From: a virus
Taxonomy: Duplodnaviria > Caudoviricetes
Length of the DNA: 59,083 nucleotides
Strand: one strand, 5' to 3'
Virus record (IMG/VR): IMGVR_UViG_3300032278_002689
Coordinates: 1 to 59,083 of that record
This document shows positions 21,625 to 59,083 of the stretch, in pieces; the stretch's first letter is position 1, and every line of letters begins with the position of its first letter. The notes beneath the pieces are model-generated. The model saw only the letters and a program-made list of their open reading frames with translations. It did not search any database and had not been told where the DNA came from. The position numbers and the translations under genes were made by a program.

Positions 21625-21638
21625 AAACACTTTTGAAG

Positions 21639-21712: not shown

Positions 21713-21722
21713 TGGATTATTT

Positions 21723-22705: not shown

Positions 22706-23602
22706 ATGATTACTCTAGAAGAAACATATCACGCCTCTGATTACGAAACATGGTTCGCCTACTGGAAACAATGTAGAGTTGCTACGGTTTACTTCAAATT
22801 TGCGCCGGGCTATACCGGAGAAGACAATCCTCTCCAAATACGTTTTAGAGAAATACCCGAAGGTGAAGATATGACTAAACCTCATCCAGACATTGAGGTA
22901 CAAATAATTGAATCACAAACAGAAACATATTGTGTTAGGGCACTATTAGACGCCCTACCCGAAGATTCTGTCTACAAAACCTTTTCCTTAATAGAGAAAT
23001 CTACACAAAATTATTATGATACCATAACAAAAAGAGAAAAAGAATTTAATGAATGGCAAGAATATAAAAAAAATGGTAATCTTACAATAGAAACTGTTGA
23101 TGAAACAAAACCCATCACATGGGAATCCATAAGAAATGCTTCAACAGAAGAATTGTTTCAAACAAAACTTGAAATATTTGAATCACCGCCCGTTCAAGAG
23201 ACTAATAAAAAAGAGTATCGTTCTGCTGTTAGAAAATCAAGTTCAATCATTGAGGCAATGTATTGGTACTATTTAATAGTTAATGAAGGTGAAGAAGACG
23301 GGGCGCGGTCAAAAATGGAAACAATTCCTGAAGATATAAATTCATTACTTATAGATATTCCTTCTGAATCAATTTTTAAATGGAAATTACAGATTTTCGA
23401 AAGAGAAGAAGTTCAAAATAGCGAAAACAAAAGAGCAAGAAGCAAAATTAGAAAAGCAAATAATTTAGTTGAACTATTTTCAGCCTATAATGAATTGGAT
23501 GAATCGGATCCAACAACTCCAACCATTGCAGAAAAATTTAAAAATTTAAATGATGAGGAAAAAGAAGAACTCAGAGAACTTCTTCAAGATAAAAAAGAAT
23601 AA
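22706..23602 (+). CDS. Hypothetical acidic protein with duplicated helical domain (possible assembly chaperone)
   Basis: EELFQTKLEIFESPPVQETNKKEYRSAVRKS versus ESIFKWKLQIFEREEVQNSENKRARSKIRKA; RBS GAAGGA. Confidence 0.6.
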   Translation: MITLEETYHASDYETWFAYWKQCRVATVYFKFAPGYTGEDNPLQIRFREIPEGEDMTKPHPDIEVQIIESQTETYCVRALLDALPEDSVYKTFSLIEKSTQNYYDTITKREKEFNEWQEYKKNGNLTIETVDETKPITWESIRNASTEELFQTKLEIFESPPVQETNKKEYRSAVRKSSSIIEAMYWYYLIVNEGEEDGARSKMETIPEDINSLLIDIPSESIFKWKLQIFEREEVQNSENKRARSKIRKANNLVELFSAYNELDESDPTTPTIAEKFKNLNDEEKEELRELLQDKKE

Positions 23603-24231
23603 TCTATATCTTCATATTTAAAATGAATGATTTTAATGTCATCATGAAATCCGTCTAAATAAACATATTCTCCTGGATACATAGAATTTATTGATGCGAG
23701 TTCTTTTAAATTTTTTTTATTACACATTCTAGTTACCCATGTTTCAGGAAGATATTTTAATTTTAATTTTTTCTTTACTTGATCTTCTACAAAATATTGT
23801 TCCCCATTAACTGGTCCTGTTGTTATTTCACGTATAATATAATGTTGTGACCAATAATTAATATTGCTCATAAATTCATCATAAATGTATTTACAGTCTT
23901 TTGGATAATATTTTTGAAATCCACCACATAATGAATAATTTTCATTCCAGGTATCACTCCACCAAGATTTTACGGATAAAAATTCTCCTCTTTCTATGGG
24001 ATAATCAATAGCTTTAATGTAATCATTAATATAAAAAGTATCAATATCAATTACAAGAACTGGCTCATCAATATCCATATTCATGACTCGTAATTTATTC
24101 CATTGTAAATCTACTCCGGACAATTCATCTCTAATCCATGTAACATTCGATATTTTTGAATTAATATAATCTTCAACTCTTTGATCATATTTGTCACGCA
24201 CTCTAACTGCAAATACTTTTGTTTTATTCAT
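23584..24231 (-). CDS. GT-A fold nucleotide-sugar transferase-like protein
   Basis: KYDQ...WNKL...VIDID (DxD)...GEQYFV...IIHF. Confidence 0.6.
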   Translation of the reverse strand: MNKTKVFAVRVRDKYDQRVEDYINSKISNVTWIRDELSGVDLQWNKLRVMNMDIDEPVLVIDIDTFYINDYIKAIDYPIERGEFLSVKSWWSDTWNENYSLCGGFQKYYPKDCKYIYDEFMSNINYWSQHYIIREITTGPVNGEQYFVEDQVKKKLKLKYLPETWVTRMCNKKNLKELASINSMYPGEYVYLDGFHDDIKIIHFKYEDIDYSFLS

Positions 24232-24743
24232 TTTCGGAAAACTGTGAAATCAATTGCAAATCTTTTCTTATCAGAAAGAATTTCTTCACCCGAATGTTTT
24301 TCTGACGGATCAAAAATACAAAATGATGTTGGTTTGATATAGTTGCTCATTCCGTTGTAAAAAAATCCACCACCCCATTCTTCTTTCCAATCACTATTAA
24401 TAATTCCTAGAATCTTAACACAATTATTATCTTTTTCCTCATCTATGTGTATATTATTTGGTGTATGTTTATCCTTTATTGATATACCACATAAACAAAT
24501 CTCTGGAATAAACAACCCTCGACCCCCTGTTTCATGAATCTGAAGTAATAATCCCATAGCAAGTCCCGCTAAAAGGGGATGTCTCATTCCATTAGTATTA
24601 ATAATGTCTAGTTTTAAAAACTTATCTTCGATTGAAAATTTTTCTCCAGCAGGAAATTTCAGATTCCAATTTTCAGAAGTAGATGCAAAGTATTTGAGTG
24701 TATCCAAATAATCTGGACTACAACAATTATTTAATATTTTCAT
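24228..24743 (-). CDS. 2OG-Fe(II) oxygenase
   Basis: HID...NSDWKEEWGGGF...FDPSEKH...KRFAI (HxD...H...R). Confidence 0.75.
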   Translation of the reverse strand: MKILNNCCSPDYLDTLKYFASTSENWNLKFPAGEKFSIEDKFLKLDIINTNGMRHPLLAGLAMGLLLQIHETGGRGLFIPEICLCGISIKDKHTPNNIHIDEEKDNNCVKILGIINSDWKEEWGGGFFYNGMSNYIKPTSFCIFDPSEKHSGEEILSDKKRFAIDFTVFRK

Positions 24744-25531
24744 ATAGATTTAATCATATTAAAATGTTTATAAACTTCACGTTCTCTTACAACTTCTCTA
24801 TATTCCCATTCAACTTCTGGAATCCATAAACCAGCAGAAGAAGCAGATTTTTCTAAAAACCAATGATGATTATATAAAAAAATTTTTGGATCTTTATATT
24901 TTTCTCTAACTCTTTCAGTTCCAGCATATTCATTATCTCTAAATCCTTCACCAGGAATACTTACGTTCAATAAAAATTCTCTATTCCAAATAGTCGGTTG
25001 ATGGCACAATAAAAAACCACTGTCTCTTTTGGCCTTTAAAACTTTTTTATTTTGTACATAATGATCAGTTTCTTCATATTCATCTAAAACATAGGAAGAT
25101 GTAAGTCGATGTAATCTCAGTCCATTCACATCATTGAATCGTACAAACCTTAATAATGAATTAAACAAGTTTGCATCAATCTGTTTAAATGGCCATTGAT
25201 CTTCTTGCATGTATAAAACATACTTTGTTTGAACCGAATTTAAAGATGTTATAAGTCTATCACTCCACCCCTCATCAATTTGCTTTGGGCCCCCATAAGT
25301 AGGTAACCAATCTCGTTCTTCGATTCCCATATATTTTTTACTTTTACCCGTTTTAATCTGAAGTATTCTCTGATCATTAAAGGGTAATTCTATTTCTTCA
25401 TTGCAAAAATATATGGGCCATCCTAAATCTAAAAATTCAAAATGATCAAACATAGTATACCAGCCATCCCAAAAATGACTGTATTCGTCACACGTATGAA
25501 TTATGATACTTATATTATTGTTATGGGGCAT
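24740..25531 (-). CDS. GT-A-like glycosyltransferase
   Basis: IHTCDEYSHFW...WSDRL...YVLYMQEDQW...HQPTIWNREFL. Start at ATG 25531. Confidence 0.6.
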   Translation of the reverse strand: MPHNNNISIIIHTCDEYSHFWDGWYTMFDHFEFLDLGWPIYFCNEEIELPFNDQRILQIKTGKSKKYMGIEERDWLPTYGGPKQIDEGWSDRLITSLNSVQTKYVLYMQEDQWPFKQIDANLFNSLLRFVRFNDVNGLRLHRLTSSYVLDEYEETDHYVQNKKVLKAKRDSGFLLCHQPTIWNREFLLNVSIPGEGFRDNEYAGTERVREKYKDPKIFLYNHHWFLEKSASSAGLWIPEVEWEYREVVREREVYKHFNMIKSI

Positions 25532-26594
25532 CGGTCCAAATATTACACAGTAAAATACGTTCTTTTGTTTCTGGTTTAGTGAAATCATATTCTCTAAAAA
25601 ATTCATCATTTACATGAATTGTTATATTTTCAAGACCAGCTTCAAGAAAAAAATCTGTTCTGTAACCCCAATCAGAACAGGTAAAAGCAGAATATTGCTC
25701 ATTATTTCTAAAAATTTTCACATGAATTGTTCCCTTTGGGGGCATAGCAAAAAATCTATATCCTTGTTGGGGTTCATACCACGCAAGACATATCCAAGGA
25801 TATTCAGCATCAGTATAAATTTTTTGTTTTTCGAAACCTATTCTTTGAACAGTCTCTTCAAGATTTTTTATTTCAATATTTTCTTCAAAAGTATTTGTGT
25901 TTTTATTCATATAAGATACACCAAGAACATATCCTAATAATTCTTCTCCCATCTGCATACCATAATCAACAATCATTTTTTTAAGATGATCATTAGGATA
26001 CATATTCAATCTTCGATATAAAAAATCTACATTACAAGACATAATCAATGTCATAATTTGCCAATGTCTGATTCTTCTATCTCCCCAATGTTCAACATCT
26101 AAATCTTCTGTTTCTCGTTCATAAAATACTGCTTGTTTTCCTTGATTTAATATAGTATCACTATTTTTTATTAATTCATCATCAAAAGGCAAAAATCCAT
26201 CATAGTCAAATAGGTGTATTACTTTTTTATTAAGAAGTTTTGCATATGTGACACCAGCAAGTAATAAACGTAAAACTGCAAATATTGTGTTATTTTTAAA
26301 AAATTCTCTACTTGCAATATTAAAAATAGGGAAAGTTTCTCCTTTGTCGTCACCGCCATAACAATAATGAATTAAGTATCCTTTCAATGTGGGATCATCG
26401 ATCAAGATATTATCTTTATCATAAATTGCATAATCAACTAATTCTTGGGTGTCTTTATCAAGAGGCAAATGGCTCGTAATCAAAACATCATATCCAAAAG
26501 ATTTAAATTGTTTTATAAATTTATGACAACATGATTTTCTCTCTTCATCAGACAAATATGCATGTATCAAAATTATATCATTTGTTTTATCCAT
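25521..26594 (-). CDS. Hypothetical protein, possibly GT-A-like
   Basis: LITSHLP...DYAIYDKDN...HLFDYD (DxD); ORF coupled to both neighbours. Confidence 0.45.
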   Translation of the reverse strand: MDKTNDIILIHAYLSDEERKSCCHKFIKQFKSFGYDVLITSHLPLDKDTQELVDYAIYDKDNILIDDPTLKGYLIHYCYGGDDKGETFPIFNIASREFFKNNTIFAVLRLLLAGVTYAKLLNKKVIHLFDYDGFLPFDDELIKNSDTILNQGKQAVFYERETEDLDVEHWGDRRIRHWQIMTLIMSCNVDFLYRRLNMYPNDHLKKMIVDYGMQMGEELLGYVLGVSYMNKNTNTFEENIEIKNLEETVQRIGFEKQKIYTDAEYPWICLAWYEPQQGYRFFAMPPKGTIHVKIFRNNEQYSAFTCSDWGYRTDFFLEAGLENITIHVNDEFFREYDFTKPETKERILLCNIWTDAP

Positions 26595-27042
26595 AAATCC
26601 ACCCAGTTAAAGAATATCTTTTTCCTTTCAATACAGGATTAACTCTGTGTTCTAATTTTGAATCAAATCTAAGACAATCTCCCACATTCAATTCAATTGA
26701 ATCATAATCTTTAATTTCAAAAACTCCTCCTTGATATTCTACATTTAAGGGTATGACACATGTTTCTATTCTTTTACGATTGCTCAAGGTTTGATAATCA
26801 TTATGCCAATGATAATAATTTAACTTAGAATATTCTGAAAATTGAAATGTCATACCAGAACTATTAAATTTATTGTCCATAACAGAATCGTTTCCCCAAA
26901 TCCAAACCTTAGATTTTCTTTCAGAAGAAAATTCACCATTTATAATTTTAGCAGGATGAACTTTTTTTCTATAATTTATAATAAAGTCAAAACATTCTTC
27001 TTTTGTTAAGAAGTTTTTAATAATACGTATTTTTTTGTCCAT
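26587..27042 (-). CDS. 2OG-Fe(II) oxygenase (prolyl-hydroxylase/PKHD-like)
   Basis: NFLTKEEC...YHWHND...YQGGVF...HRVNPVLKGKRYSLTGW. Confidence 0.85.
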   Translation of the reverse strand: MDKKIRIIKNFLTKEECFDFIINYRKKVHPAKIINGEFSSERKSKVWIWGNDSVMDNKFNSSGMTFQFSEYSKLNYYHWHNDYQTLSNRKRIETCVIPLNVEYQGGVFEIKDYDSIELNVGDCLRFDSKLEHRVNPVLKGKRYSLTGWIYG

Positions 27043-27575
27043 TCTTCTGTTTTCATTGCAGGAGCAAAATTATGATTAAATAAACAAACTGAATAATTTA
27101 ATTCTTTTCGATTATAAGGATAAGACCAACATACTTCATCATAGATATTATAATCTATTTCTTTGTAAAGATATTCATCAATGCCTCTCCAATATTTTAC
27201 TCTGCTATAGTCTTCATCTTCATAAAATTTATCATAGATGTGAGAATAATCTCCTTTCCACGACATTATTGAAGAATTCAAAGGAGTATGAAACGGTTCT
27301 CTCCACCAGGCATTAATAAGTGTAAAATCATCTTTAATTAAATGAATTATAGAATCCTTAATAATTATATCTAAATCAAAATATAAATAATTTATATTAT
27401 CAGTACATTCTTTAAACATTTGTAATTTATCAAAAACAACACCTTCTCCTTCTCTTATGACATGATATTCAAATCTATATCTCAATTTTCCATGATTACG
27501 AATCATATGAAGAATATTATCAACATACCATTCATCATATTTATTTCCGGTACATACAAGAACAATGGTTACCAT
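27006..27575 (-). CDS. GT-A-like glycosyltransferase
   Basis: VCTGNKY...KLQMF...YFDLDIII...NSSIMSW...GIDEYL. Confidence 0.65.
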   Translation of the reverse strand: MVTIVLVCTGNKYDEWYVDNILHMIRNHGKLRYRFEYHVIREGEGVVFDKLQMFKECTDNINYLYFDLDIIIKDSIIHLIKDDFTLINAWWREPFHTPLNSSIMSWKGDYSHIYDKFYEDEDYSRVKYWRGIDEYLYKEIDYNIYDEVCWSYPYNRKELNYSVCLFNHNFAPAMKTEEWTKKYVLLKTS

Positions 27576-28339
27576 TTTCCTATTACCATAAATCTATCAT
27601 ATAGGGGCAAAGATCGTTTTCCTTTATACAAAACATCTTTAATTTGATTTTTTTCAATCAATTCATTAACATCTTTTACACAATTTATATGATCTTCTAG
27701 CTCAAAATAATTATTTGATTGTATCACTAAAATGGGTTTCGTTGGATAATCTTTATAATATTCTTTCATTAAAGCAATATCAGCCATATGTTCTGAAGAA
27801 GTGTTTATTATTAATTGTCTTCTTCTTAATTCTTTACGTTCAAAAAAATCTCCAAATTGTGCAATTTTAAACTTTTCATCAAAATGATTTTTATATTGTG
27901 CAACTATCTTATGACAATTTTCATCCAAATCATATAAATCAACTTGTTTTATTTTAAAAATATCCGATAACATTTCAATTAACGGATATCCAAACCACGA
28001 ACCTATTATGTCAATATGAGACTCATCAAAATATTGTATTTTTTCTAACTCTTGAAAAAGCCACAATTTTGATTCATATTGTCCCTGAGATACAGAATCT
28101 TCAAAACTATTAGAATATGAAGGTAAATTATTATTAATCCATTGATTAACCCAATAATATGGTGTTTCTCGATTATCATTTTCACATATAGAAATTTCTT
28201 CTTTGTGTTCTCCGATAATCTCTCTAATTGAACCAATTTCTGTATTAAGTTCTCCGATTTGTTCATTACAAGAACCTATTTCAATATTATGCAGACTTAT
28301 ATCATTTTTATTTTTTCGCCAATTATATATTTGTTCCAT
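27569..28339 (-). CDS. Class I SAM-dependent methyltransferase-like protein with N-terminal heptad repeat
   Basis: ESKLWL...IIGSWFG...YDLD...INTSSEHM...IQSNNY...RFMVIG. Start probably ATG 28339. Confidence 0.55.
   Translation of the reverse strand: MEQIYNWRKNKNDISLHNIEIGSCNEQIGELNTEIGSIREIIGEHKEEISICENDNRETPYYWVNQWINNNLPSYSNSFEDSVSQGQYESKLWLFQELEKIQYFDESHIDIIGSWFGYPLIEMLSDIFKIKQVDLYDLDENCHKIVAQYKNHFDEKFKIAQFGDFFERKELRRRQLIINTSSEHMADIALMKEYYKDYPTKPILVIQSNNYFELEDHINCVKDVNELIEKNQIKDVLYKGKRSLPLYDRFMVIGKW
28208..28291. repeat. Imperfect 42-nt tandem duplication encoding 14-aa coiled-coil units
   Basis: TTCTCCGAT...GAACC.ATTTC..TATTA.G twice; peptide HNIEIGSCNEQIGE / LNTEIGSIREIIGE. Confidence 0.65.
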
Positions 28340-28742
28340 ATACACAATAATGTTTATATTTTTTATTTTTACTTTGTATTTCAAATGAATTAAAAACTTC
28401 TGTCAGTTCATTATCTTCTATTAATTTATCAATCGAATGAATAGGATTACAATCACCATTATGTTCTTTATCATCACCTCTTAATATGAAAATTCCTTTA
28501 TGTATTCTACCTACAGGATATGTTTTTTCACAATTATAATGCAATACACAAGTATGTAATTTAACATTATCAAATACAAAATCATTACACATAACACTTG
28601 GCATATCTCTAAAATTAATATCATAATTTATATTATCAATTTCCATATCCAATCCCCTCAATGTTTTAATAAATTTAAAACTAGGACAACATAGTACAGA
28701 TATTTTTTCGTGATTTACAGCCCAATAGAATAACTTTTCCAT
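28323..28742 (-). CDS. Hypothetical protein, possibly a degenerate relative of the adjacent methyltransferase-like gene
   Basis: HYNCEKTYP...DCNPIHSIDKLIEDN...YCVYG parallels NTSSEHM...NCVKDVNELIEKN...FMVIG. Confidence 0.5.
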   Translation of the reverse strand: MEKLFYWAVNHEKISVLCCPSFKFIKTLRGLDMEIDNINYDINFRDMPSVMCNDFVFDNVKLHTCVLHYNCEKTYPVGRIHKGIFILRGDDKEHNGDCNPIHSIDKLIEDNELTEVFNSFEIQSKNKKYKHYCVYGTNI

Positions 28743-29440
28743 AATTCCTGTACTGGTGATTCATGTAATTCATAATGTTTGATTTCTTTCATATTTTCAT
28801 TATTATAAAGATGTGATGTATTAAATAATGTCACCTTATTTTTTAATTGATAATTTTCTTTATTATAATTTGAAAATACTTCTTTTTCCCACAAATTCAA
28901 TCTACCATTTCTATGATGTTGATAAAACAAATATTTGTCTAAACTCTTATATGTCCACTTTATTTTTTCCCAATTTTCTTTAGTATATTTTAAGAGCCAA
29001 GTGGCTGTTCCTTTGTCCCATGCAACAAATGATGAATTTGTATGACAAGACACTCCTCTGCCATAATTAAATAAACTTATCTCTTCATAATCATTCCAAT
29101 AATTCCATATAAATGTAATATTATGATGTTTTCTTGTTATTAGCTCAGTTACATCTTCATGCACTAATACATCTAAATCTATCCAAAAGTTTTTATCATA
29201 TTCATCATTATCAATAAGAAATAATTTTTCATAAGTAAAAACTCTCTTTGTATCATATGGTCTAAGTTCTTGAATATCTTTTATTTCGATTTTAGAAGAT
29301 ATCCCTTTAGAATCATCAGTATAACACACAAAATGAAATGGTATTTGACAATGTTTCAGCAATCCACCATACGTTCTATTAACATAGTCAGAATTATATT
29401 TTGTGCCCCATTTAAGACAATTTATTTTAATATTATTCAT
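28715..29440 (-). CDS. GT-A-like glycosyltransferase
   Basis: CLKWGTKY...YVN...FVCYTDD...WIDLDV...NSSFVAW...DKYL. Start at ATG 29440. Confidence 0.7.
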   Translation of the reverse strand: MNNIKINCLKWGTKYNSDYVNRTYGGLLKHCQIPFHFVCYTDDSKGISSKIEIKDIQELRPYDTKRVFTYEKLFLIDNDEYDKNFWIDLDVLVHEDVTELITRKHHNITFIWNYWNDYEEISLFNYGRGVSCHTNSSFVAWDKGTATWLLKYTKENWEKIKWTYKSLDKYLFYQHHRNGRLNLWEKEVFSNYNKENYQLKNKVTLFNTSHLYNNENMKEIKHYELHESPVQELWKSYSIGL

Positions 29441-30263: not shown

Positions 30264-30264
30264 A

Positions 30265-42820: not shown

Positions 42821-42822
42821 TT

Positions 42823-43464: not shown

Positions 43465-43506
43465 AATGGTTCCTCGATAATAGCTTGTTAATCACACTTT
43501 ATATTA

Positions 43507-43514
43507 TATTTATA
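43507..43514 (-). promoter_or_regulatory. Canonical T4 late promoter TATAAATA inside the enzyme cassette
   Basis: Exact TATAAATA at the edge of the only sizeable intergenic gap in the cassette (43465-43509), followed by RBS GAGGA and the nitroreductase ATG. Confidence 0.65.
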
Positions 43515-48584: not shown

Positions 48585-48587
48585 AAG

Positions 48588-48944: not shown

Positions 48945-48956
48945 TTATATCCTTCT

Positions 48957-50819: not shown

Positions 50820-52446
50820 CGAATTTCTCCATTTCTGTCCTAGGTCCTAAAGTCAATCGTATACCATCAAGACATTTTCTCACTAAAATTCCTTGATCAG
50901 CAAGTTTATCTGCATTATTAGGATCAGTATGTATGAAAATAAAATTGCCATATTCTCCTCCTTGAGTACTAACATTCATTTTGTTTAATTCCTCAATCAA
51001 ATAATCACGACCTTTATTCATTTCTTGCACGTATTCGTCTTTTATTTCTTCATGATTAATAAAATAATGTGCAGTTTGTAAAGATAGTAAATTAGTCTCA
51101 TATCCATTTCTATTATTTGAGATATATTTAATATTATGTTCTTGTGACATAATATAACCTAATCTAATACTAGCAAGACCAAAAGCCTTCGAAAAACTTC
51201 GCATTATCACTAAATTATTATACTCATCAATCAGCGGCAAATAATCAGGAACATTAAAACCAAAATAAACATCATCAAGAGCAATTATTTTATCTGTATT
51301 AGAACAAATATTACGTATTTCATCTTCTGAATAACTATTACCATATGGCACATTAGGATTTTGCAAAAATATTAAATCTGCATTATCCATGTTATGATCT
51401 CTTATCAATCGAAAAATATTAGCATAAACATCATACATTGCATAAGTAGGAGTGTCATAATATACAGTAGTTTCAGCATAAAGTTCCATTAAATTTCTAA
51501 TCGCACCCGAAACCCCTTCAGTAAAAAACAATTTACTAGAATCTATATTCAACCAATCTGCAAAAATATTATAATAAGCATCTACATCAGGATATTTCCA
51601 AACATTGTTAGCTAATTTTTTTCTCAAATCATTCATTGTGGAAATATGAAATGGTGTCACTCTTTCATTTTTATCTAAAGGAACACCAACTTTATCAACC
51701 CCCTTCGATCTATCACGGAAAAGATACTCTATATGTTTTTTCGTACTCTTTTTAATCTGCATCTTGCTATCAAACTTTTCTATTTTCTTCCCCATGAAGT
51801 TATTATAATGTAATATTCCATTTATCAGTTCAATATCTTCAGGAGTCTTGACTACCATTCCTGCTTTTTTTGATATAGGACCATACATTTTATGTTTCCC
51901 ACAAAAAATGTTTTTTTCTTTCATAAAAACATTCGTTCTCACTACCTGTACAGAATATGCTATCAATTTCACAGGTTCTAAATCTTGAGTCTTACACATT
52001 TTTCCATATTCAAAATTAATAGGTCGATCACCTAAACATGTATGAATATATTTTAATTCATATGTATTACAAGAATCTAATTCATTTTCTTCATAATAAG
52101 CCATCACCTTAGCAATTTCTTCTCCGGTTTGTAGAGGATTTATTGTATTCACTATTGCGACAGTATGCAAGTATGGGTGTTTTTCTATAAAGTCATAAAA
52201 CACATCATCAATTAATGTCTCAGACGAACCTAACTCTGTAGGTCTTTCATAATATTCAACACCATATTCCTCTGCAATCTTTCTAAAAACATCATTATCT
52301 CCGTTCACTATAACTTTATCAAAACAATTTGATTCAAGAGCGGCTTTTATAGCCCAAGCCATCATGGGTTCACCACCTATTAATGCTAAATTTTTAAGTT
52401 TTGCTCTTGTACTGCCATATCTACAAGGTATCATAGCATATTTCAT
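50797..52446 (-). CDS. Fusion of NeuA/KdsB-type cytidylyltransferase and class I/II PLP aminotransferase (HisC/CobD-like)
   Basis: IPCRYGSTRAKLKNL...FDKVIVNGD; LDKNE...YP...PTYAMY...NPNVPYG...DDVY...RSFSKAFGLASIRLGY. Confidence 0.85.
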   Translation of the reverse strand: MKYAMIPCRYGSTRAKLKNLALIGGEPMMAWAIKAALESNCFDKVIVNGDNDVFRKIAEEYGVEYYERPTELGSSETLIDDVFYDFIEKHPYLHTVAIVNTINPLQTGEEIAKVMAYYEENELDSCNTYELKYIHTCLGDRPINFEYGKMCKTQDLEPVKLIAYSVQVVRTNVFMKEKNIFCGKHKMYGPISKKAGMVVKTPEDIELINGILHYNNFMGKKIEKFDSKMQIKKSTKKHIEYLFRDRSKGVDKVGVPLDKNERVTPFHISTMNDLRKKLANNVWKYPDVDAYYNIFADWLNIDSSKLFFTEGVSGAIRNLMELYAETTVYYDTPTYAMYDVYANIFRLIRDHNMDNADLIFLQNPNVPYGNSYSEDEIRNICSNTDKIIALDDVYFGFNVPDYLPLIDEYNNLVIMRSFSKAFGLASIRLGYIMSQEHNIKYISNNRNGYETNLLSLQTAHYFINHEEIKDEYVQEMNKGRDYLIEELNKMNVSTQGGEYGNFIFIHTDPNNADKLADQGILVRKCLDGIRLTLGPRTEMEKFVVVFRKI

Positions 52447-53264
52447 ATCATCTCCATTAATTTATTATAACTATCTTTTCCTAATAATAAACCATTTGCA
52501 TCACATTCTTTACAAGATATCACGTTACATCTATTTCCTTTAGACAATTCTTTTCTGTACTTGTTCATTTTATCAGACATCCAAAGTTCTTCTAATGTGT
52601 TTTCTCTCAGATTTCCTAAACTTTCCTTATATTTCCAGTCATTACAACAAAATCTAAGATCCATAGTCAGATCAATATATCCTTTATAAAAAGGCAAATA
52701 ACATTTTCTATCTAATGATTTTTCAATAGTTTTAAAAGATCCGGATCTATTATTAAAAATTGAAGACTGTAATCCACCAGCAAAATGATTTTTAATCACT
52801 CCACATCTATCACCTAAAATTTCTATTTTTTTATTATAATTTTCTTCATTATCATATTCATCTAGAATTATTCTACTTAATCCATTATCAAATAACTCAT
52901 CCAACATACTCGGAAATTCTAATATCTTATCACCATTTGAAATTAATTCTATCCATTCATTTTTAAACACATTAACAATTTCAAGAATATCTGGATTGAG
53001 AAGAGGCTCTCCCTTACCACTTATAATAATAATGCCTTGATATTCAAATTCATCAAGTCTATTTTTAATTAAATAAGCATCATCGATTGTTAAGTGTTCA
53101 TCTTTATTAGGATATCCATTTCCTCTGGGACAAAAACTACATGTTCTATTACAAAGTTCTGTAGGATTTATCTCAACGGTAGTCATTCCTAAAACGGATT
53201 TTAAATTTTCATATTGAGCGGATCTAAAATTTATATGATTACTGGAAGAAAACGAATCATTCAT
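52443..53264 (-). CDS. Radical SAM / SPASM-twitch protein
   Basis: CNRTCSFC, GKGEPLL, SNGD; CYLPF...CCND...GNL...CKEC. Confidence 0.9.
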   Translation of the reverse strand: MNDSFSSSNHINFRSAQYENLKSVLGMTTVEINPTELCNRTCSFCPRGNGYPNKDEHLTIDDAYLIKNRLDEFEYQGIIIISGKGEPLLNPDILEIVNVFKNEWIELISNGDKILEFPSMLDELFDNGLSRIILDEYDNEENYNKKIEILGDRCGVIKNHFAGGLQSSIFNNRSGSFKTIEKSLDRKCYLPFYKGYIDLTMDLRFCCNDWKYKESLGNLRENTLEELWMSDKMNKYRKELSKGNRCNVISCKECDANGLLLGKDSYNKLMEMI

Positions 53265-54286
53265 AATCTTGCGTTTATATCTAATGCTATAAAAAATTGA
53301 TAAGTATTATCTTCAAACGACATTGCATCATGCCATATTGAACTATCATGTAAATACAATCTTCCTGCTTCTACATTCTTCTCAGAAATATAACTCTCAT
53401 ATTCTTTTTTTATATCATTCCAAACTAATTTCTCTCCATCATCAGATTTATATCGTAATTTAACCGATTCAGGATGAGTAGTTCCCCACAATCTTAACCA
53501 AGAAGACTTATTTTTCCACGTATCTATGTGAGGTTTAAAATGTCCTAGAGTGTTAAATTTTAAAATACAAGAACGCAACATATATTTTTCAATAGATTCT
53601 AAAACTTTTAACGAGGTTAAGTTCATAACTTCAGTTTTCATTAAAAAATCTGTCTCATTCACCATTTTATTCATATCAAAAGGATCCGTATAAAATTTAG
53701 TGAAATCTTCTGGTGTGTCTTTATATCCCAAATTAACAAAGTTCCATCTATCTAGAGGCCAGCATGAAGGTTCTACTTTATTATTAAGCGCACCATTCAT
53801 ATTAATTAAAGGTAATCCAAATCTTCCAAATTCTTGAAATTTATCTCCCCAAGACTTAAAGCAATCTCTATATTGTTTAATTTCTTCTAAAAATTTGTCA
53901 ACATTAATTTTTATATTGGTGGGTTGAAGATTTTGCTTGTGTAGATTCACATATTCTTCTTCGTTCATTATGGGAATATTATCTTTTATTTCATATTTAT
54001 ATTGAATATCATTACTATTCATATGTTTTTTTTGTTGCTCTCGTAATTTTATACTCCCTTCATATTCTTCTTGAGTATGATATCGATGATATAATATTCC
54101 GATATTTGGTTTTTGAAACACTAAGTTAAAAAAACAATGACCATATTTGTCCATCAATTTAAAATTATATTTTCTTAATGGATCTGTGTCTTCTGGAACA
54201 TAATTATCAACCATAAAAGTTTTAAATTCATCCTTATTCGTAAATTCTTTATATGGGTAAACTATTTTTGTTATTACTGTAATCAT
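53261..54286 (-). CDS. Hypothetical N-domain + 2OG-oxygenase-like (cupin) domain
   Basis: GHFKPHID...LRLWG...GRLYL...WHDA. Confidence 0.55.
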   Translation of the reverse strand: MITVITKIVYPYKEFTNKDEFKTFMVDNYVPEDTDPLRKYNFKLMDKYGHCFFNLVFQKPNIGILYHRYHTQEEYEGSIKLREQQKKHMNSNDIQYKYEIKDNIPIMNEEEYVNLHKQNLQPTNIKINVDKFLEEIKQYRDCFKSWGDKFQEFGRFGLPLINMNGALNNKVEPSCWPLDRWNFVNLGYKDTPEDFTKFYTDPFDMNKMVNETDFLMKTEVMNLTSLKVLESIEKYMLRSCILKFNTLGHFKPHIDTWKNKSSWLRLWGTTHPESVKLRYKSDDGEKLVWNDIKKEYESYISEKNVEAGRLYLHDSSIWHDAMSFEDNTYQFFIALDINARL

Positions 54287-55110
54287 TTTGGTTTAAATCC
54301 CGTATCTCGACCACCAGAATCATTTATGTTTATATTAAAAAACTCACCATCATATATTTTATTCTTAAATTTAAAAACACCCTCTCCATGAAATCTATTT
54401 TTTTTCCAATATCCTGTATAGCTACCAGTATTAAAAATTGCCTCCCCATATCCATGTATATGACCTTCTTTAAATTGACCCTTAACGTATTCTGTTCCAT
54501 GATAAAAAATACCATTACCATCAAAATACCCATCAACAAATTCTCCCTCATAATATCGACTCTTAGAAAAAACTAATTTTCCAGTACCAGAATAATTTCC
54601 GTCTTCATCAAATTCTCCAATATAAAATGTACCATCTGGCCATATTTCTTTCATATTTGATTTCTGAAATCCATGCCGATCAAAACTTTCATTTAAAGGC
54701 TCTGCCCATTGTCCGTCACCTGTTATCCAAAAATCATCACCTTTCATTCCTTTAGGACCAACACCCATTTCTCCAAAATACTTATTTCCATTCCATATCT
54801 TAAAACATCCTGTACCACAAGCTCGATCATTCGTAAATTCTCCTACATATGTTGCGCCTGAAACCCACTTATGCATTCCTATTCCAATATGTGCATTTTT
54901 ATCAAATTCGCAAACTATTTTTCGTTCCCAGTCGGTTCCAGCTCCTTGTATTTTCAATCCTATACCATGAGCTTTGTCATTTTCAAACTCTCCAACATAT
55001 TTTTGATTCCACAGTTCTATTTCATAAAAACCTATTCCATGTTCTTTTTCATTTTTTGTATCACCAAAATATCTTCTTCCTCCTTTTATACTACTATATG
55101 TCTCATTCAT
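54283..55110 (-). CDS. MORN-repeat protein
   Basis: Repeated YxGEFxNDxxHGxG motifs. Start at ATG 55110. Confidence 0.85.
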   Translation of the reverse strand: MNETYSSIKGGRRYFGDTKNEKEHGIGFYEIELWNQKYVGEFENDKAHGIGLKIQGAGTDWERKIVCEFDKNAHIGIGMHKWVSGATYVGEFTNDRACGTGCFKIWNGNKYFGEMGVGPKGMKGDDFWITGDGQWAEPLNESFDRHGFQKSNMKEIWPDGTFYIGEFDEDGNYSGTGKLVFSKSRYYEGEFVDGYFDGNGIFYHGTEYVKGQFKEGHIHGYGEAIFNTGSYTGYWKKNRFHGEGVFKFKNKIYDGEFFNININDSGGRDTGFKPK

Positions 55111-55846
55111 AAATAAAATCACCTTCTATGCCTTGATTGTAATAAGTAAGAAAATAATTTGCTATTGCTCTATGTCCAAATTTATTAGGATGAAAATCAT
55201 CTTCACTTATATGATACTCATTATGATTTTCATAATCTATAATATCCAATACTTTGGGTATGGGTCCTTGCCAATATCGATTATTTTTACAAATATCAGG
55301 AAATTTTGATAAATTAAAAATATCATAAGGAGCATTATATCCCTCTTTTTTAAATCTTTCTAATTTTCCTATCTGTAAAGGACTAATACCTTGACCACAA
55401 AGATATTCTATACCTTTCGATTCACACAACTGTTTGGCCATATAGAACATTCTCAAATTTAAATTCACAACTTTTTTTAATGAAAAATGTTTATATGCAA
55501 ATCCATGCGGCAGTCCTCTTTCATATTCATGCATCATTCTCATAATTAAAGAAGAAGTCATATCTTTTGAATCTGTTTCAAAAAAACTTTGTCTGTCCCA
55601 TCCAGTCCATAAAATACATACATCAGTTATATCAGAATATTCATATAGGTAATCATATAAAAGATAAAAAATCTTTTCATTTCCTGCCGCAATTTGTCCT
55701 AAATTCACTACCTCAATTCCCAATTCTTCACCTAAAACTGAGGGCCATCTTAAAAAATTAAGATCAGACCTATAGTTATTATCTGTATAACTACATCCTA
55801 AGCATAATAATTTTTTACTCTTTTGCATGTATGAGCCAGCTCCCAT
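55103..55846 (-). CDS. SGNH/GDSL-like hydrolase or acyltransferase
   Basis: LGCSYT...WP...NLGQIAAGN...WT..DR...DFHPNKFGHRAIA. Start may be ATG 55828. Confidence 0.75.
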   Translation of the reverse strand: MGAGSYMQKSKKLLCLGCSYTDNNYRSDLNFLRWPSVLGEELGIEVVNLGQIAAGNEKIFYLLYDYLYEYSDITDVCILWTGWDRQSFFETDSKDMTSSLIMRMMHEYERGLPHGFAYKHFSLKKVVNLNLRMFYMAKQLCESKGIEYLCGQGISPLQIGKLERFKKEGYNAPYDIFNLSKFPDICKNNRYWQGPIPKVLDIIDYENHNEYHISEDDFHPNKFGHRAIANYFLTYYNQGIEGDFIYE

Positions 55847-56988
55847 ATTTCAGGATTAACATCTGAAAATTTTCTTTTTTGATATTCATCTAAATGCTTC
55901 ATTGATTTTACAAATTCTAACAATTTATTTTCAGACTGTTCTTCATCTAATATTATTGTATTGAAATCTCGTACATCATCATATACCTGTTCAAGACCCA
56001 TAAAATATATGGTATTTAATTTTTTAGATAAATTTATTTTCCACTGTTTTCTCATATTTAACGGTATCATATTAGATTTTAAATAACTGGGCCAAAACAA
56101 AGAATAACAAGTTTGTGGGGAATCATAATGTCTAGAAAATTCTAAAATACTCTGTAGCTTGTTTATATTCATTATACTGACAGTAGTTACTAATTTAATA
56201 ACAAAATCTGTTTTTAAAAATTTTTCAATATTTTTTACTATCATTTTCCAGGGAGCGCCGAATCTCATAACTTCTGCTAACTCTTCAACAGCATCTATAC
56301 TTATATCTAAATAAACTTTTTTACATTTATTCAACAAACGCAATAATTCATCATCTGGAAAAACACTACCATTAGTAGTAATCTTTAAGTAAATATTTTT
56401 TAAATCTAATTTATTCAAAAACCATTTCAAATTTCGACTCAAAAACGGCTCTCCTCCAACTATAGCAACTCTTTTTAAATTAGATAAATCAGAATTTTCT
56501 AATAATGTCTTTATTTTTTTAGAATAATTATTAATAGACAACGGTTCATAATGATCATGTTCGAATTCTTTCAATTTCTGTATAACACTTGTTGCTTTAT
56601 TCCATGTTGAACTGATTCCTGGTCTACAAGACCTACACATAAAATTACAACTAAAATCTAATGAAATTTCTAAATCTTCTATAAGTTGTATTTGATGATT
56701 CTTTAAACACAAATCATTATAATATTTTCTTTTACTTAAATATCCTATTCTTTCAGCATTCCAACAATTTTTACATCCTTCATACTTCACTCCCTCCGAA
56801 AACATTTCTCGTAAATCATACCATCTGTAAGATTTTAATAATCTACTTAATGTATTTACAGAATTTAAATTAACTTGATCCCAATGAGGGTTTGCGGAAG
56901 TGTCAAAGTGACAACAAGGAGAAATTTTACCTTCAGGTTGAGTAATAGATAAATGATTTTGTTGATATGTACAGACTAATTTTTCCAT
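55798..56988 (-). CDS. Radical SAM protein with N-terminal twitch-type Cys domain
   Basis: C...PCCH...CKNCW; CNFMCRSC, GGEPF, TTNG, SIDA. Confidence 0.9.
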   Translation of the reverse strand: MEKLVCTYQQNHLSITQPEGKISPCCHFDTSANPHWDQVNLNSVNTLSRLLKSYRWYDLREMFSEGVKYEGCKNCWNAERIGYLSKRKYYNDLCLKNHQIQLIEDLEISLDFSCNFMCRSCRPGISSTWNKATSVIQKLKEFEHDHYEPLSINNYSKKIKTLLENSDLSNLKRVAIVGGEPFLSRNLKWFLNKLDLKNIYLKITTNGSVFPDDELLRLLNKCKKVYLDISIDAVEELAEVMRFGAPWKMIVKNIEKFLKTDFVIKLVTTVSIMNINKLQSILEFSRHYDSPQTCYSLFWPSYLKSNMIPLNMRKQWKINLSKKLNTIYFMGLEQVYDDVRDFNTIILDEEQSENKLLEFVKSMKHLDEYQKRKFSDVNPEIWELAHTCKRVKNYYA

Positions 56989-57584
56989 GTTTCATTTTGT
57001 ATTAATCTACCCATACATTGATTATGTTCAAATTTATCTTCCGTATCAAAACCATTAACTATCAAAGAATTTTGATATTCCAAATAGTATGGGGTATCTT
57101 TAAAATCAAATATTGTATTATTTGACATCAAAACAGGAGGAATACATTCAGTAGAACCATAAATATTCCATATATTTTTTGCTCCTGTTGCTTCTAATTG
57201 AGCAATATCCCAATCAGTAATTGGTGCAGATCCCGTACATAAATTTTTAATGAAATCTAATTTTGGCATTCTTCTTTTGATCAAAGTTCTAAAAGTTCCT
57301 ATTGCTAATGTTAAAATAGTAGGTTTCAATTCCTCTACCATATCCCAAAATTTAAAAGGTTCCATCTTAACATTTATTACTTCACATCCAACTGTTTGAG
57401 CAGGAATAATACAAAAAGCCCAACTTGCTATAGTCCAAGTAGGAAAAGGATTTAAAATTATATCTTCAGGGGTTAACTCCCATTTATTACATAAAAATTG
57501 TGCTGGCTTATAAAAATCCATTTCATCATGAGTAACACGTTTTTGTTTTCCTGTAGTTCCACTGGTAAATATTGTAATTTTCAT
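56976..57584 (-). CDS. Minimal AMP-binding (ANL-family) enzyme
   Basis: FTSGTTGKQK P-loop, GSAPI, YGSTE, D...GR; only about 200 aa. Confidence 0.75.
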   Translation of the reverse strand: MKITIFTSGTTGKQKRVTHDEMDFYKPAQFLCNKWELTPEDIILNPFPTWTIASWAFCIIPAQTVGCEVINVKMEPFKFWDMVEELKPTILTLAIGTFRTLIKRRMPKLDFIKNLCTGSAPITDWDIAQLEATGAKNIWNIYGSTECIPPVLMSNNTIFDFKDTPYYLEYQNSLIVNGFDTEDKFEHNQCMGRLIQNETWKN

Positions 57585-58039
57585 AATTCCCAAATCTCCT
57601 GAACTTCACCATAGACTTCTTGAGTTCCTATATATGTGCTTCCGGGCCATCCTCTTCCTGTGTGTACCCACTTCCTTAGTCTATTACTTTTAGCTCCCGC
57701 ATTATTTGATATGTTGAGAGTAAAATAAAAAATAGACTTATCATGAATATTATTAATATAATCCATTTGAGCATGTGCTTGAATCTTATTTAAAAATTTA
57801 TTTGAAACACCAGATAAAGTTGCTCCTCTGAACATTACTCTATATCCATCTAAAAAATCATGAACACCGCTCAATGAAACTATTTTGTCATCTGCGAAAT
57901 GACCAAACCAAATTGCTTTATCCCATTTCATTGCCTCTAACGATTGATTATTTACATAATTCAACTTTTTACATTTTATACAAAATTCATGAACCTGAAA
58001 AAGGTGATCATCTGTCAACTGCAGTAGTTCTGTTATCAT
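57581..58039 (-). CDS. Hypothetical protein, possibly GNAT-like acyltransferase
   Basis: DKIVSLSGVH...YRVMFRGA beta-strand pattern; weak. Confidence 0.45.
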   Translation of the reverse strand: MITELLQLTDDHLFQVHEFCIKCKKLNYVNNQSLEAMKWDKAIWFGHFADDKIVSLSGVHDFLDGYRVMFRGATLSGVSNKFLNKIQAHAQMDYINNIHDKSIFYFTLNISNNAGAKSNRLRKWVHTGRGWPGSTYIGTQEVYGEVQEIWEL

Positions 58040-59083
58040 AAAACTTTCACATCTGTTTTTATTTCAAACTTCTTTACATCTTTTTCATTATTAACAATGG
58101 GCTCTCCTTTTATATTTAAGGACGTATTCAATAGCATTGGACAACCTGTTTCTTTTTTCCATTCTTCAAGCAATGTTCGATGAGGATCTTCTGTCACCTC
58201 CTGAATTCTTGATGTTCCATCAAGGTGTACTATACTAGGATATAATTGTTGGGTTTGATGAGTTGCATTTCTAACAGTATTCATATAAGGCGAAGATATT
58301 CCTTTTTCAAAAAAGGTATTCACATCTTCTTTTAGAATCATTGGCGCAAATGGCCTAAATTTTTCTCGACCTTTTACTTTATTCACTTTATTTTTCATGT
58401 CAAGAATCGATGGATCAGCAAACAATGATCTATTGCCCAATGCTCTCGGACCAAATTCTGCTCGACCTTTCGCAACACCCACCATATGATTTTCTTTAAG
58501 TTCTTTGATAATCTCTGTGACAGGATATTCTCCTGCAATTTCGTAACCAAGATATGGATTTGGTTCTATTTTATGATCTAAAGCACATCCAATAGCAGAT
58601 CCACCATCGCCCGGATTACAAGGAATGTATGTATTAAATTTTGTAAGAAAACGATTTGCAGACACATTTAAAGCACATCCACCAACAAAAACAAGATTTT
58701 CATCATCAATTTTGTCTATAATTTTTTGAAATTCTTCTTCATATATATCTTGTGCTATGGCGGCTATCTCAAACTCATCAGTCAATCCTTCTAAATCTAT
58801 TCCTTGATGAAAACTTTTATTATTGTTCCACATTGATTTAATATATTGATAATCATGTATATTATAGTTTTGTGTGACTGCTGATGCTCCCATTAAAATA
58901 TATTCTTCTTCATTTGGTTTCCAACCTGCCGCCTGAGTCATTGCAGAATAAAACAAACCAAGCGATTTAGGATAATCCCATTTTTCAATTAATGTAAAAT
59001 CACCATCTTTTACTTTCCATTGAGTCATAGTATTCCATTCACCAATGGCGTCTATTACTAAAACTGTACAATCTATAAAAGGA
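58036..59083 (-). CDS. Carbamoyltransferase (NodU/CmcH/TobZ family), 5' end outside window
   Basis: The frame stays open to the edge (...VLVIDAIGEWNT...). SLGLFYSA, GGCALN, GDGGSAIG, EFGPRALGNRS, RPFAP, HLDGTSR, LNTSLN..GEP. Confidence 0.93.
   Translation of the reverse strand, partial: PFIDCTVLVIDAIGEWNTMTQWKVKDGDFTLIEKWDYPKSLGLFYSAMTQAAGWKPNEEEYILMGASAVTQNYNIHDYQYIKSMWNNNKSFHQGIDLEGLTDEFEIAAIAQDIYEEEFQKIIDKIDDENLVFVGGCALNVSANRFLTKFNTYIPCNPGDGGSAIGCALDHKIEPNPYLGYEIAGEYPVTEIIKELKENHMVGVAKGRAEFGPRALGNRSLFADPSILDMKNKVNKVKGREKFRPFAPMILKEDVNTFFEKGISSPYMNTVRNATHQTQQLYPSIVHLDGTSRIQEVTEDPHRTLLEEWKKETGCPMLLNTSLNIKGEPIVNNEKDVKKFEIKTDVKVL

Follow-up and report, generated by a model that had tools for sequence, protein, structure and literature searches.

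The window analysed here, a 59,083-nt stretch of viral DNA (Duplodnaviria; Caudoviricetes) from IMG/VR record IMGVR_UViG_3300032278_002689, carries from position 23584 to its end a chain of 43 open reading frames (ORFs) on the minus strand, among which are 11 radical S-adenosylmethionine (SAM) enzymes. This chain would make up most of a hypervariable island that encodes soluble enzymes and is about 58 kb long in a colinear relative, between genes 33-59-32 and rnh of a T4-like myovirus. On balance, we lean towards a sugar or glycan product of some kind that is based on nucleotide sugars. The placement of such a glycan on a cytoplasmic, probably phage-made, acceptor is a more guarded proposal, to which we give less than even credence.

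In the mechanism that we propose, sugars would first be activated as nucleotide derivatives by a domain resembling cytidine 5'-monophosphate (CMP)-sugar synthetases, and also by a nucleoside diphosphate (NDP)-sugar pyrophosphorylase encoded just past the window end in relatives. The sugars would then be edited by amination, amidination, carbamoylation, ATP-dependent amidation, methylation, and hydroxylation, as well as by radical chemistry performed by the 11 radical SAM enzymes, which belong to three subfamilies. Finally, soluble glycosyltransferases (GTs) would transfer the edited sugars to an acceptor inside the infected cell. A sugar product is the best reading because the island holds a domain for sugar activation, enzymes that transfer amino, amidino, and carbamoyl groups, methyltransferases, and a GT-B fold, with multi-domain GTs adjacent to it, and because its core is partly associated with glycan genes in cells. 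The chain itself, its enzyme families, the conserved and intact state of its genes, and the absence of membrane segments are observed, whereas we infer that the genes form one pathway, that it works on sugars, and what its acceptor would be.

The gene island and its T4-like setting

The record consists of the 59-kb window only, i.e., a genome fragment, in which 116 ORFs of at least 60 amino acids (aa) were listed. The 43 ORFs of the chain (118–549 aa) follow one another closely: 38 of the 42 junctions overlap or abut, the biggest gap is 45 bp, the coding share is 99.8%, and the longest plus-strand ORF within 23584–59083 measures 107 aa. The GC content of the chain is 0.26–0.34 and its GC skew is negative all along. 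No replication or structural family was found among the 43 ORFs with Pfam and PHROGs, and the PHROG labels 'DNA endonuclease (V)' land on proteins resembling 2-oxoglutarate (2OG) oxygenases.

To the left of the chain lie T4-type genes (Pfam, PHROGs), including those for gp5, a tail protein, gp53, two gp48/54-type tube caps, gp4, gp2, the tail tube, the baseplate hub, gp32, gp59, and gp33. By this gene content, the window is assigned to a T4-like myovirus with a Straboviridae-type core. A preliminary description of this DNA had reported about 40 co-oriented, mostly overlapping genes in a T4-like phage, with no replication or structural genes among them, and this was borne out, with the baseplate genes and those for gp32, gp59, and gp33 adjoining the chain. 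The gp32 protein is 55–57% identical to the gp32 proteins of Pelagibacter phage HTVC008M, of cyanomyoviruses, and of Methylophilales phages. Nucleotide similarity to sequenced phages is low (502 records, all at 60–80% identity, none spanning 80% of the query), and a megablast search with 40000–52000 against phage records matched nothing. Photosystem genes of the psbA type are common in cyanomyoviruses. A gene of this type (PF00124) was found in none of five related records, four of which are at least 90% complete, the window itself being a fragment. We regard the virus as an uncultured marine T4-like myovirus and not as a cyanophage.

The preliminary description placed the genes at 23584..59083; the chain is real, but its extent was understated. 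Two giant soluble GT genes (15405–21630) lie directly between gene 33 and position 23584, and the last gene of the chain (58036–59083) is truncated by the window end. Synteny with related T4-like genomes, which the preliminary description had named as a check, was found in G004, an 87-kb IMG/VR contig that is colinear with the entire window (53–95% aa identity for most genes), although gene order within the island is locally reshuffled. Contig G006 (36.6 kb) covers its half of the window and is mostly 82–97% identical. Beyond the carbamoyltransferase gene at the window end, the co-oriented chain goes on for about 13–15 kb in both relatives. This extension encodes a half-size DegT-family protein, a 2OG oxygenase, a B12-binding radical SAM enzyme, more radical SAM enzymes, and an NTP_transferase protein, after which a PD-(D/E)XK protein, a zinc ribbon, and DUF6433 follow; in G006, the chain stops at a T4-type RNase H. 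In G004, whose record has an estimated CheckV completeness of 39%, the island is about 58 kb long. The real island is thus bigger than 23584–59083, as it includes both giant GT genes and runs on beyond the window end. The island therefore takes up the space from gene 33 to rnh, two genes that are near neighbours in T4 itself.

Radical SAM enzymes

All 11 radical SAM enzymes of the chain retain the CxxxCxxC motif, and BLASTP among the window proteins sorts them into three groups. Five are N-terminal-twitch (N-twitch) proteins that pass the 170-bit cut-off of NF033640 (N_Twi_rSAM), namely 32326–33723 (465 aa, 209 bits), 37333–38421 (362 aa, 242 bits), 40289–41719 (476 aa, 392 bits; the anchor gene of the core), 43510–44838 (442 aa, 201 bits), and 55798–56988 (396 aa, 219 bits). 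Four Pfam-assigned proteins have a C-terminal SPASM-like part (group B): the core gene 30265–31305 (346 aa, Pfam E 4e-10), 34826–35758 (310 aa) and 36359–37345 (328 aa), both also placed by paralogy, and 52443–53264 (273 aa). The remaining pair (group C) consists of the core gene 33720–34829 (369 aa, Pfam E 2.3e-16) and 38418–39725, for which the TTG start in the ORF list gives a 179-bp overlap with the upstream gene; its real start is probably further in. NF033640 is a catalogue family to which five window proteins belong with 201–392 bits, whereas the other six radical SAM enzymes fall into other subfamilies. Literature searches found no assayed member of NF033640, and membership gives no substrate.

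In an alignment of the N-twitch proteins (A1), C15, C33, C97, and C100 are invariant, and an N-terminal Cys-rich domain is combined with the CxxxCxxC motif. The profile of this alignment matches SkfB in the PDB (E 1.2e-8), and its N-terminal Cys-rich region matches the twitch region of BtrN (E 1.5e-5). A phmmer search with 33720 against PDB sequences gave nothing at E ≤ 0.01.

These matches also bear on a different explanation, in which the radical SAM/SPASM-type enzymes have a peptide or protein as their substrate and modify it, either by a maturation like that of peptides that are ribosomally synthesized and then modified post-translationally (RiPPs) or by cross-linking of a phage protein, while the sugar enzymes serve a separate, neighbouring function. 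Many of the sub-cut-off NCBIfam matches of the radical SAM enzymes are peptide maturases, as is SkfB, the best PDB match of the N-twitch profile. The island also encodes two small paralogues (118 and 128 aa), besides a PP-loop ATPase and a flavoprotein with a nitroreductase fold. Against a peptide substrate, the largest intergenic gap of 45 bp leaves no space for a separate precursor gene, overlapping or distant ones not having been part of the search, and no PqqD/RRE-type domain was matched by Pfam or NCBIfam. Furthermore, known RiPP clusters hold one or two such radical SAM enzymes, not 11, and the N-terminal auxiliary-cluster domain matches the twitch of BtrN, an aminocyclitol enzyme. We therefore consider peptide modification distinctly unlikely, and sugar editing remains our preferred function for these enzymes.

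Radical SAM arrays in T4-like phages have been noted in print. In the T4-like Campylobacter phages CP220 and CPt10, which carry 11–12 radical SAM genes, five such genes and one for an amidinotransferase make up a swappable module, which was termed interchangeable by Timms et al. 2010 (PMC2853527). The amidinotransferase of the window shares 25.5% identity with the CP220 gene over 91% of its own length (E 4e-11), and the anchor N-twitch gene has no match in Campylobacter phages at E ≤ 1e-5. The CP220/CPt10 module comprises 10–12 genes, whose chemistry was not tested there, whereas the island of the window has at least 43. Nishimura et al. 2017 (PMC5332604) mention 12 radical SAM genes in the environmental genome of a T4-like phage, and Zaragoza-Solas et al. 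2020 (PMC7029224) found radical SAM cassettes together with lipopolysaccharide (LPS)-type genes in the variable islands of pelagimyophages. Like the island of the window, these islands of pelagimyophages and marine T4-like phages are large, variable, and rich in GTs, and their radical SAM cassettes differ between close relatives (PMC7029224; PMC5332604). The pelagimyophage islands, however, lie between VrlC and gp14 with tail fibres (PMC7029224), and the island of the window between gene 33 and rnh. Neither PMC7029224 nor PMC5332604 contains an analysis of the radical SAM array or a proposal for its chemistry, and literature searches found no functional study of phage radical SAM arrays. The statement of the preliminary description that no characterised phage pathway has such a scale holds as far as these searches go, although the arrays as such had been reported (PMC2853527, PMC5332604, PMC7029224). 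The island is an unusually large variant of a phage island type that has been noted in print but not tested.

Putative sugar-modifying enzymes and glycosyltransferases

With Pfam at E ≤ 0.01, 20 of the 43 ORFs were assigned to a family, and a search at E ≤ 2 with 25 unassigned ORFs added weak matches only. The protein encoded by 44835–45830 (331 aa) matches the inosamine-phosphate amidinotransferase StrB1 (1bwd) over its whole length in three collinear stretches (E 1.4e-19), and its C-terminal catalytic-Cys motif GGAHCCTQDIRR aligns to GGFHCATLDVRR of 1bwd. It further matches AGAT (E 2e-12) and, weakly, SxtG (E 1.4e-4), and we place it in the StrB1/AGAT family of amidinotransferases. The 549-aa protein encoded by 50797–52446 is a fusion (Pfam) of a CMP-sugar (NeuA/PseF-type) cytidylyltransferase-like domain, which matches 1eyr (CMP-sialic-acid synthetase-like, E 5e-12) and the PseF model (6e-16), with a C-terminal HisC-type pyridoxal phosphate (PLP) aminotransferase domain (1h1c, E 1.6e-26). 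The truncated gene 58036–59083, whose 5' end is cut by the window end, encodes an O-carbamoyltransferase of the NodU/TobZ/NovN family (Carbam_trans_C E 3.6e-51). In relatives its open frame has 457–479 aa, and a full-length relative matches 7xb6, NovN, GdmN, and TobZ in the PDB. The window-truncated copy missed the NodU equivalog NF041651 (125.9 versus 1000 bits) and met only the broader Carbam_trans_N/C family.

Amidation may be performed by a 256-aa PP-loop ATPase (39547–40317) with an SGGxDS motif and a C-terminal Cys cluster resembling QueC (E 3.9e-5, residues 195–254). The core gene 27569–28384 (271 aa) encodes a class-I SAM methyltransferase fold according to a structure model with a predicted local distance difference test score (pLDDT) of 85 and a Foldseek probability of 1.0 to SAM methyltransferases. 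Hydroxylation would be carried out by 2OG-Fe(II) oxygenases at 26587–27042 (151 aa, PF13640 E 2.3e-14) and 47976–48584 (202 aa, Pfam E 6.7e-6). A nitroreductase-family flavoprotein of 213 aa is encoded by 42823–43464 (Pfam E 1.2e-8) and has homologues in 15 viral loci.

The two giant GT genes, both on the minus strand, encode a 1184-aa soluble protein with GT2, GT1, and GT9 domains (15405–18959; Pfam), which is contiguous with the island, has no transmembrane segment, and shows 81% aa identity and a ratio of nonsynonymous to synonymous substitutions (dN/dS) of 0.22 against G004, and an 894-aa soluble protein with GT1 and FkbM methyltransferase domains (18946–21630; Pfam, PHROGs). Within the chain, the 424-aa protein encoded by 46709–47983, whose family is known from viruses only (Atlas), is predicted by its model (pLDDT 68) to have a GT-B glycosyltransferase fold, as all 50 chains listed by VIA-align are GT-B. 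Three further proteins form a family with a DxD motif, namely 23584–24231 (215 aa), 27006–27575 (189 aa), and 28715–29512 (265 aa; PHROG glycosyltransferase, E 9.4e-4). Their alignment (A4) has an invariant K, the DxD motif, and an invariant W, and a GT-A-like nature of this family may be taken as a lead only. A comparison (hhalign) of A4 with the N-terminal half of a Bdellovibrionota methyltransferase-fusion protein indicated that the two are unrelated.

Of the families named in the preliminary description, the amidinotransferase, carbamoyltransferase, PLP aminotransferase, twitch radical SAM enzymes, and 2OG oxygenases were confirmed, whereas the sulfotransferase, SGNH, and small GT-A assignments fared less well. 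The 218-aa protein of 50163–50819 is weakly sulfotransferase-like (phrog_3347, E 4.5e-5; no Pfam match), the 247-aa protein of 55103–55846 weakly SGNH/GDSL-like (Pfam E 0.024; GCSYT and DFHPN by eye), and one GT-B fold was added by modelling.

The same description drew parallels to aminoglycoside, Nod-factor, and saxitoxin pathways. A free small molecule of one of these kinds, released from the infected cell, would fit the StrB1-, TobZ/NodU-, and BtrN-twitch-type family matches, which are real, along with the weak SxtG match; the parallels hold at the level of enzyme families but lack a scaffold-forming enzyme. Pfam and NCBIfam found no cyclitol-forming enzyme (2-deoxy-scyllo-inosose synthase, inositol-phosphate synthase) among the 43 ORFs, although a divergent one is possible among the 23 ORFs without a family. 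Likewise, Pfam found among the 43 ORFs no polyketide synthase, acyl carrier protein, or class II aminotransferase-AONS family that would point to an SxtA-type starter, and no chitin-oligosaccharide synthase or other scaffold-forming enzyme. There is neither an exporter nor a resistance gene, the NodU equivalog was missed, and the two giant polymer-type GTs adjoin the island, so that we see only a very slight chance for a free small molecule. An aminocyclitol product, suggested by StrB1 together with the BtrN-type twitch, had also been considered and was dropped as no cyclitol synthase was found.

The GT-B protein also brings hypermodification of phage DNA or nucleotides (base glycosylation or deazapurine-type) as a means to evade restriction into consideration. 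Its top VIA-align match is the DNA beta-glucosyltransferase of T4 (Z 11.0, root-mean-square deviation 5.3, 277 residues aligned), and the alpha-glucosyltransferase follows with Z 9.1. The PP-loop protein is QueC-like, three radical SAM enzymes have weak QueE-like PHROG matches, and the guanines of CP220, which has a distantly related module, are fully modified (10.1101/2023.04.13.536721). On the other hand, the GT-B fold is generic, and the 50 matches listed are GT-B enzymes of many kinds. Hydroxymethylase (PF00303) and TGT/DpdA (PF01702) were each found in none of the five related records (four at least 90% complete), a divergent DpdA being able to evade PF01702, and none of the 43 ORFs matched a Pfam family of kinases, DNA-binding proteins, or nucleotide metabolism. 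DNA hypermodification thus appears very improbable. With regard to the glycan or adduct put forward in the preliminary description, it is the sugar or glycan that is best supported, by the enzyme families, the adjacent GTs, and three of the eight Bdellovibrionota loci discussed below.

Distribution in viruses and Bdellovibrionota

Relatives of the anchor gene 40289 were found in 46 IMG/VR loci (30–93% identity), some of them on records of 150–328 kb, and in 3011 protein clusters at E ≤ 1e-5, none of which is informatively named. Across 47 viral loci, 30265, 34826, 36359, 33720, 38418, 39547, and 42823 recur in 15–36, and the flanks in 1–8. Homologues of the core methyltransferase 27569 occur in 21 viral and 18 cellular loci, and those of 30265 in 36 viral and 33 cellular loci. 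A tblastn search with 33720 (E ≤ 1e-5) against 50,697 phage records gave no match. One of the viral records (G005, with locus L036) is 328 kb long, has direct terminal repeats, and is estimated to be 100% complete; it encodes an anchor homologue with 53% identity, and the family therefore reaches jumbo phages.

Prokaryotes were scanned with the N-twitch alignment as query and one genome per species, which delivered 67 loci. The seven best of these loci (L064–L070) show 53–93% identity, some with 8–13 CxxxCxxC ORFs, and belong to metagenome-assembled genomes of Chloroflexota, Acidimicrobiaceae, Verrucomicrobiales, Rickettsiales, Gammaproteobacteria, and Planctomycetota. They resemble contigs of phages that ended up in the wrong bin, and one of them (L064) lies on a contig of 161 kb. 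By their record titles, 47 of the 67 cellular loci bear Bdellovibrionota-type names, including contigs of 0.8–2.9 Mb and one isolate. Here, the homologues share about 50% identity with 40289, mostly 53–60% with 33720, mostly 36–40% with 30265, and 23–33% with 27569, for which hhalign gave 100% against a Bdellovibrionota protein. The loci often have 5–12 CxxxCxxC ORFs per 21 kb and sometimes add homologues of 38418, 39547, and the carbamoyltransferase.

In three of the eight Pfam-annotated Bdellovibrionota loci (L081, L083, and L097), genes for GT2, GT-C, or enzymes of uridine diphosphate (UDP)-sugar metabolism (dehydrogenase, epimerase, short DegT) lie among or beside the array. In L083, on a Bacteriovoracaceae chromosome, the array adjoins a GT2 and a GT-C (PMT_2) membrane transferase. 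At BLAST level, an array is associated with a glycan gene in about 12 of the 67 cellular loci, which is an undercount for lack of sensitivity. Next to its UDP-sugar genes, the cultured Bdellovibrio isolate (L097) encodes N-twitch homologues that are only distantly related (about 29% identity), and it does not have the phage-type core genes. The Bdellovibrionota arrays differ from the window in that they are cellular and that some stand beside membrane GT-C and UDP-sugar enzymes, which the phage lacks. Literature searches found no functional characterisation of these multi-radical-SAM arrays.

Two side observations concern these loci. A half-size DegT-family protein (195–222 aa, profile about 160–250 of 360) accompanies radical SAM enzymes both in phage relatives (L048, 12327–12914, plus strand) and in the Bdellovibrio isolate (L097, 13273–13941, plus strand), with 41–44% identity between them. 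On a Bdellovibrionales chromosome (L105), the radical SAM array is followed by one small ORF without an assignment and then by an S-adenosylhomocysteine hydrolase gene (14924–16288, plus strand).

Conservation and variation

Against G004 and G006, 62 comparisons gave dN/dS estimates for 38 of the 43 genes, with three paralogue rows (25–29% identity) excluded; four genes without a usable counterpart were left out, as was 50797, whose matches are split in pieces. The island has a median of 0.19 (range 0.07–0.56), with values below 0.3 in 52 of the 62 comparisons; for the 14 genes of structure and replication to the left, the median is 0.33. The genes of the island are thus intact, maintained, and under purifying selection. 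The small paralogues 46336–46722 (128 aa) and 48588–48944 (118 aa; BLASTP 38%, E 3e-25) match no known family, occur in the closest relatives only and have the highest dN/dS of the island (0.24–0.55). All 30 of the bins of 30001–50000 are covered by contigs from three DNA runs, which belong to three studies, with exact pieces of 0.6–2.4 kb, so the phage is not a one-off. From a further run (X20), guessed to be RNA, one exact 524-base piece and 20-base scraps were obtained, and nothing was concluded from it. Contigs of two independent metagenome runs (X14 and X17) join 39542 to 40291, skipping 748 bases and placing 9 other letters between. As the skipped part is essentially the PP-loop gene, a natural variant without this gene exists among close relatives.

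Such variation would also be expected if there were no single pathway and the island were a recombination hotspot that gathers independent auxiliary cassettes with unrelated substrates. Gene order is reshuffled compared with G004, some island genes are absent from G004 or G006, metagenome contigs skip parts (e.g., 39542–40291 in two runs), and the Campylobacter-phage module was called interchangeable (PMC2853527). The tight, operon-like packing with overlapping stop and start codons across 43 genes speaks against it, however, as do the uniform purifying selection and the presence of the same core set in 20–47 of the 47 viral loci and in Bdellovibrionota. We assign a low probability to independent cassettes and maintain that the genes would act in one glycan pathway.

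As to the time of expression, the motif TATAAATA, the core of the T4 late promoter, is depleted across the window (6 versus 15.1 expected), and so is ATAAATA (21 versus 57.4 expected). Since TATAAATA is depleted and not enriched, single sites serve as hints only. One TATAAATA site (43507–43514, minus strand) lies at the upstream edge of the island's sole sizeable gap, 43 nt before the start of 42823–43464, and an ATAAATA site (21718–21724, minus strand) lies upstream of the GT1-FkbM gene 18946–21630. These are weak hints that the island may be expressed late. Sigma-70-type sites (133 versus 134.6 expected) and terminator-like sites (5 versus 5.5) were uninformative.

Acceptor and biological role

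Neither the 43 ORFs (one borderline case aside) nor the two giant GTs contain a strong hydrophobic or transmembrane segment, and no flippase or polymerase, ABC exporter, or initiating phosphoglycosyltransferase is encoded among them. As no membrane protein is encoded, the island alone cannot export a polymer, and its acceptor would be a cytoplasmic macromolecule or a host lipid-linked intermediate. Judging from this lack of membrane proteins and from the soluble multi-domain GTs, phage-made proteins are the favoured acceptor, which would amount to decoration of the virion. Virion glycosylation is known from mycobacteriophages, and chlorovirus PBCV-1 glycosylates virion proteins in the cytoplasm with a virus-encoded multi-domain GT-methyltransferase. 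We know of no radical SAM array in either of these glycosylation systems. The window resembles PBCV-1 in that a soluble multi-domain GT-methyltransferase is encoded by the virus.

Alternatively, edited nucleotide sugars and peripheral GTs could act on lipid-linked LPS or capsule intermediates of the host, leading to an altered surface and superinfection exclusion. The peripheral GTs of envelope pathways also have no membrane segments, the 1184-aa protein contains a GT9 domain (heptosyltransferase family) and a GT2 domain, and the array of L083 stands beside GT2 and GT-C (PMT_2). Moreover, a role at the host surface is the published reading of the LPS-type genes in the variable islands of pelagimyophages (PMC7029224). 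As there is no flippase, polymerase, initiating phosphoglycosyltransferase, or transporter, nor a strong membrane segment in the 43 ORFs, such a route would rely wholly on the host for the export of a foreign sugar. Modification of the host surface is in our estimate not very likely.

Several observations weigh against a glycan pathway with a phage-made acceptor. No finding points to a particular acceptor, and for 23 of the 43 ORFs Pfam gave no family at E ≤ 0.01. The closest solved sequence matches of the radical SAM enzymes are the peptide maturase SkfB and the twitch of BtrN, and no assayed relative was found. For the putative GTs, Foldseek with the 46709 model gave no match at E ≤ 0.001, and the A4 profile is not significant against the PDB (E 0.67–0.89), all three matches being GT-A enzymes. 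Of the eight annotated Bdellovibrionota loci, four (L073, L077, L105, and L124) have no glycan gene near the array and L075 has only a SIS domain and a GNAT. The gene order inside the island differs among close relatives, which fits independent cassettes equally well, and the late-promoter motif is a consensus match only.

A wider hypothesis can be formulated, which we regard as possible but doubtful. The three radical SAM subfamilies, and foremost the N-twitch family, may represent a new class of sugar-editing radical enzymes. Phages may exchange these enzymes in the manner of cassettes, while a methyltransferase and three of the radical SAM enzymes stay fixed as the core. The glycan that the phage makes, displayed on its virion or on the infected cell, would thereby become almost combinatorially diverse, which would be the viral equivalent of O-antigen diversity. 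Predatory Bdellovibrionota would have the core in common with phages through gene transfer and would apply its chemistry to their own envelope. If so, abundant ocean phages would devote a sizeable share of their genome to oxygen-sensitive radical chemistry for an unknown glycan, which would imply new radical SAM enzymology on sugars, a new layer of phage–host or phage–phage recognition in the sea, and a connection with the surface of predatory bacterial cells. There is no isolated phage with the core, but the Bdellovibrio isolate (L097) could make the enzyme family testable.

Other ORFs of the island and its neighbourhood

The remaining ORFs of the chain, all on the minus strand, are less informative. 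At its left end, 24228–24743 encodes a 171-aa phrog_37187 protein (PHROGs 1.9e-46) that is weakly 2OG-oxygenase-like (2OG-FeII_Oxy_3, E 0.031). No family match was found for 24740–25609 (289 aa; 82% aa identity and dN/dS 0.23 against G004), 25521–26594 (357 aa; dN/dS 0.26), the Cys-rich 28323–28742 (139 aa, 7 Cys; dN/dS 0.14), and 29433–30293 (286 aa), which has SDSFG near its N-terminus by eye. The same applies, according to Pfam, to 31284–32348 (354 aa), 35745–36359 (204 aa), 45827–46354 (175 aa), 48957–49508 (183 aa), and 57581–58039 (152 aa), and also to 49505–50194 (229 aa), which has no counterpart in the relatives.

To the right of the anchor gene, 41709–42233 (174 aa) matches phrog_274, which also matches 2OG-like proteins, and 42221–42820 (199 aa) matches phrog_28018 (PHROGs 1.4e-35) and has a DDD motif by eye. 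Further to the right, the 341-aa protein of 53261–54286, with homologues in 13 viral loci, is a lead only for a cupin/2OG hydroxylase (Atlas 0.93 to clusters with 17% Asp_Arg_Hydrox members). It is followed by a MORN-repeat protein of 279 aa (54283–55122, Pfam E 4.8e-13), and 56976–57593 encodes a 205-aa protein that corresponds to the central part only of an AMP-binding (adenylate-forming) domain (Pfam E 8.8e-21, profile 168–330 of 384).

Between the giant GT genes and the chain, two ORFs lie on the plus strand. The ORF at 22706–23602 encodes an acidic protein of 298 aa that has no family match (Pfam, PHROGs). The divergent 323-aa product of 21723–22694 has no family match either, and a tblastn search with it against phage records at E ≤ 1e-3 gave no match. 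Its Ser and Thr content of 23.2% is the highest of 61 ORFs (median 10.9%), and it could be a candidate acceptor of glycosylation. Farther to the left, the plus-strand ORF 11765–13618 encodes a protein of 617 aa without a Pfam or PHROG match, which has 15% Gly and four moderately hydrophobic stretches, and this region is the only part of the window with a raised GC content (0.40).

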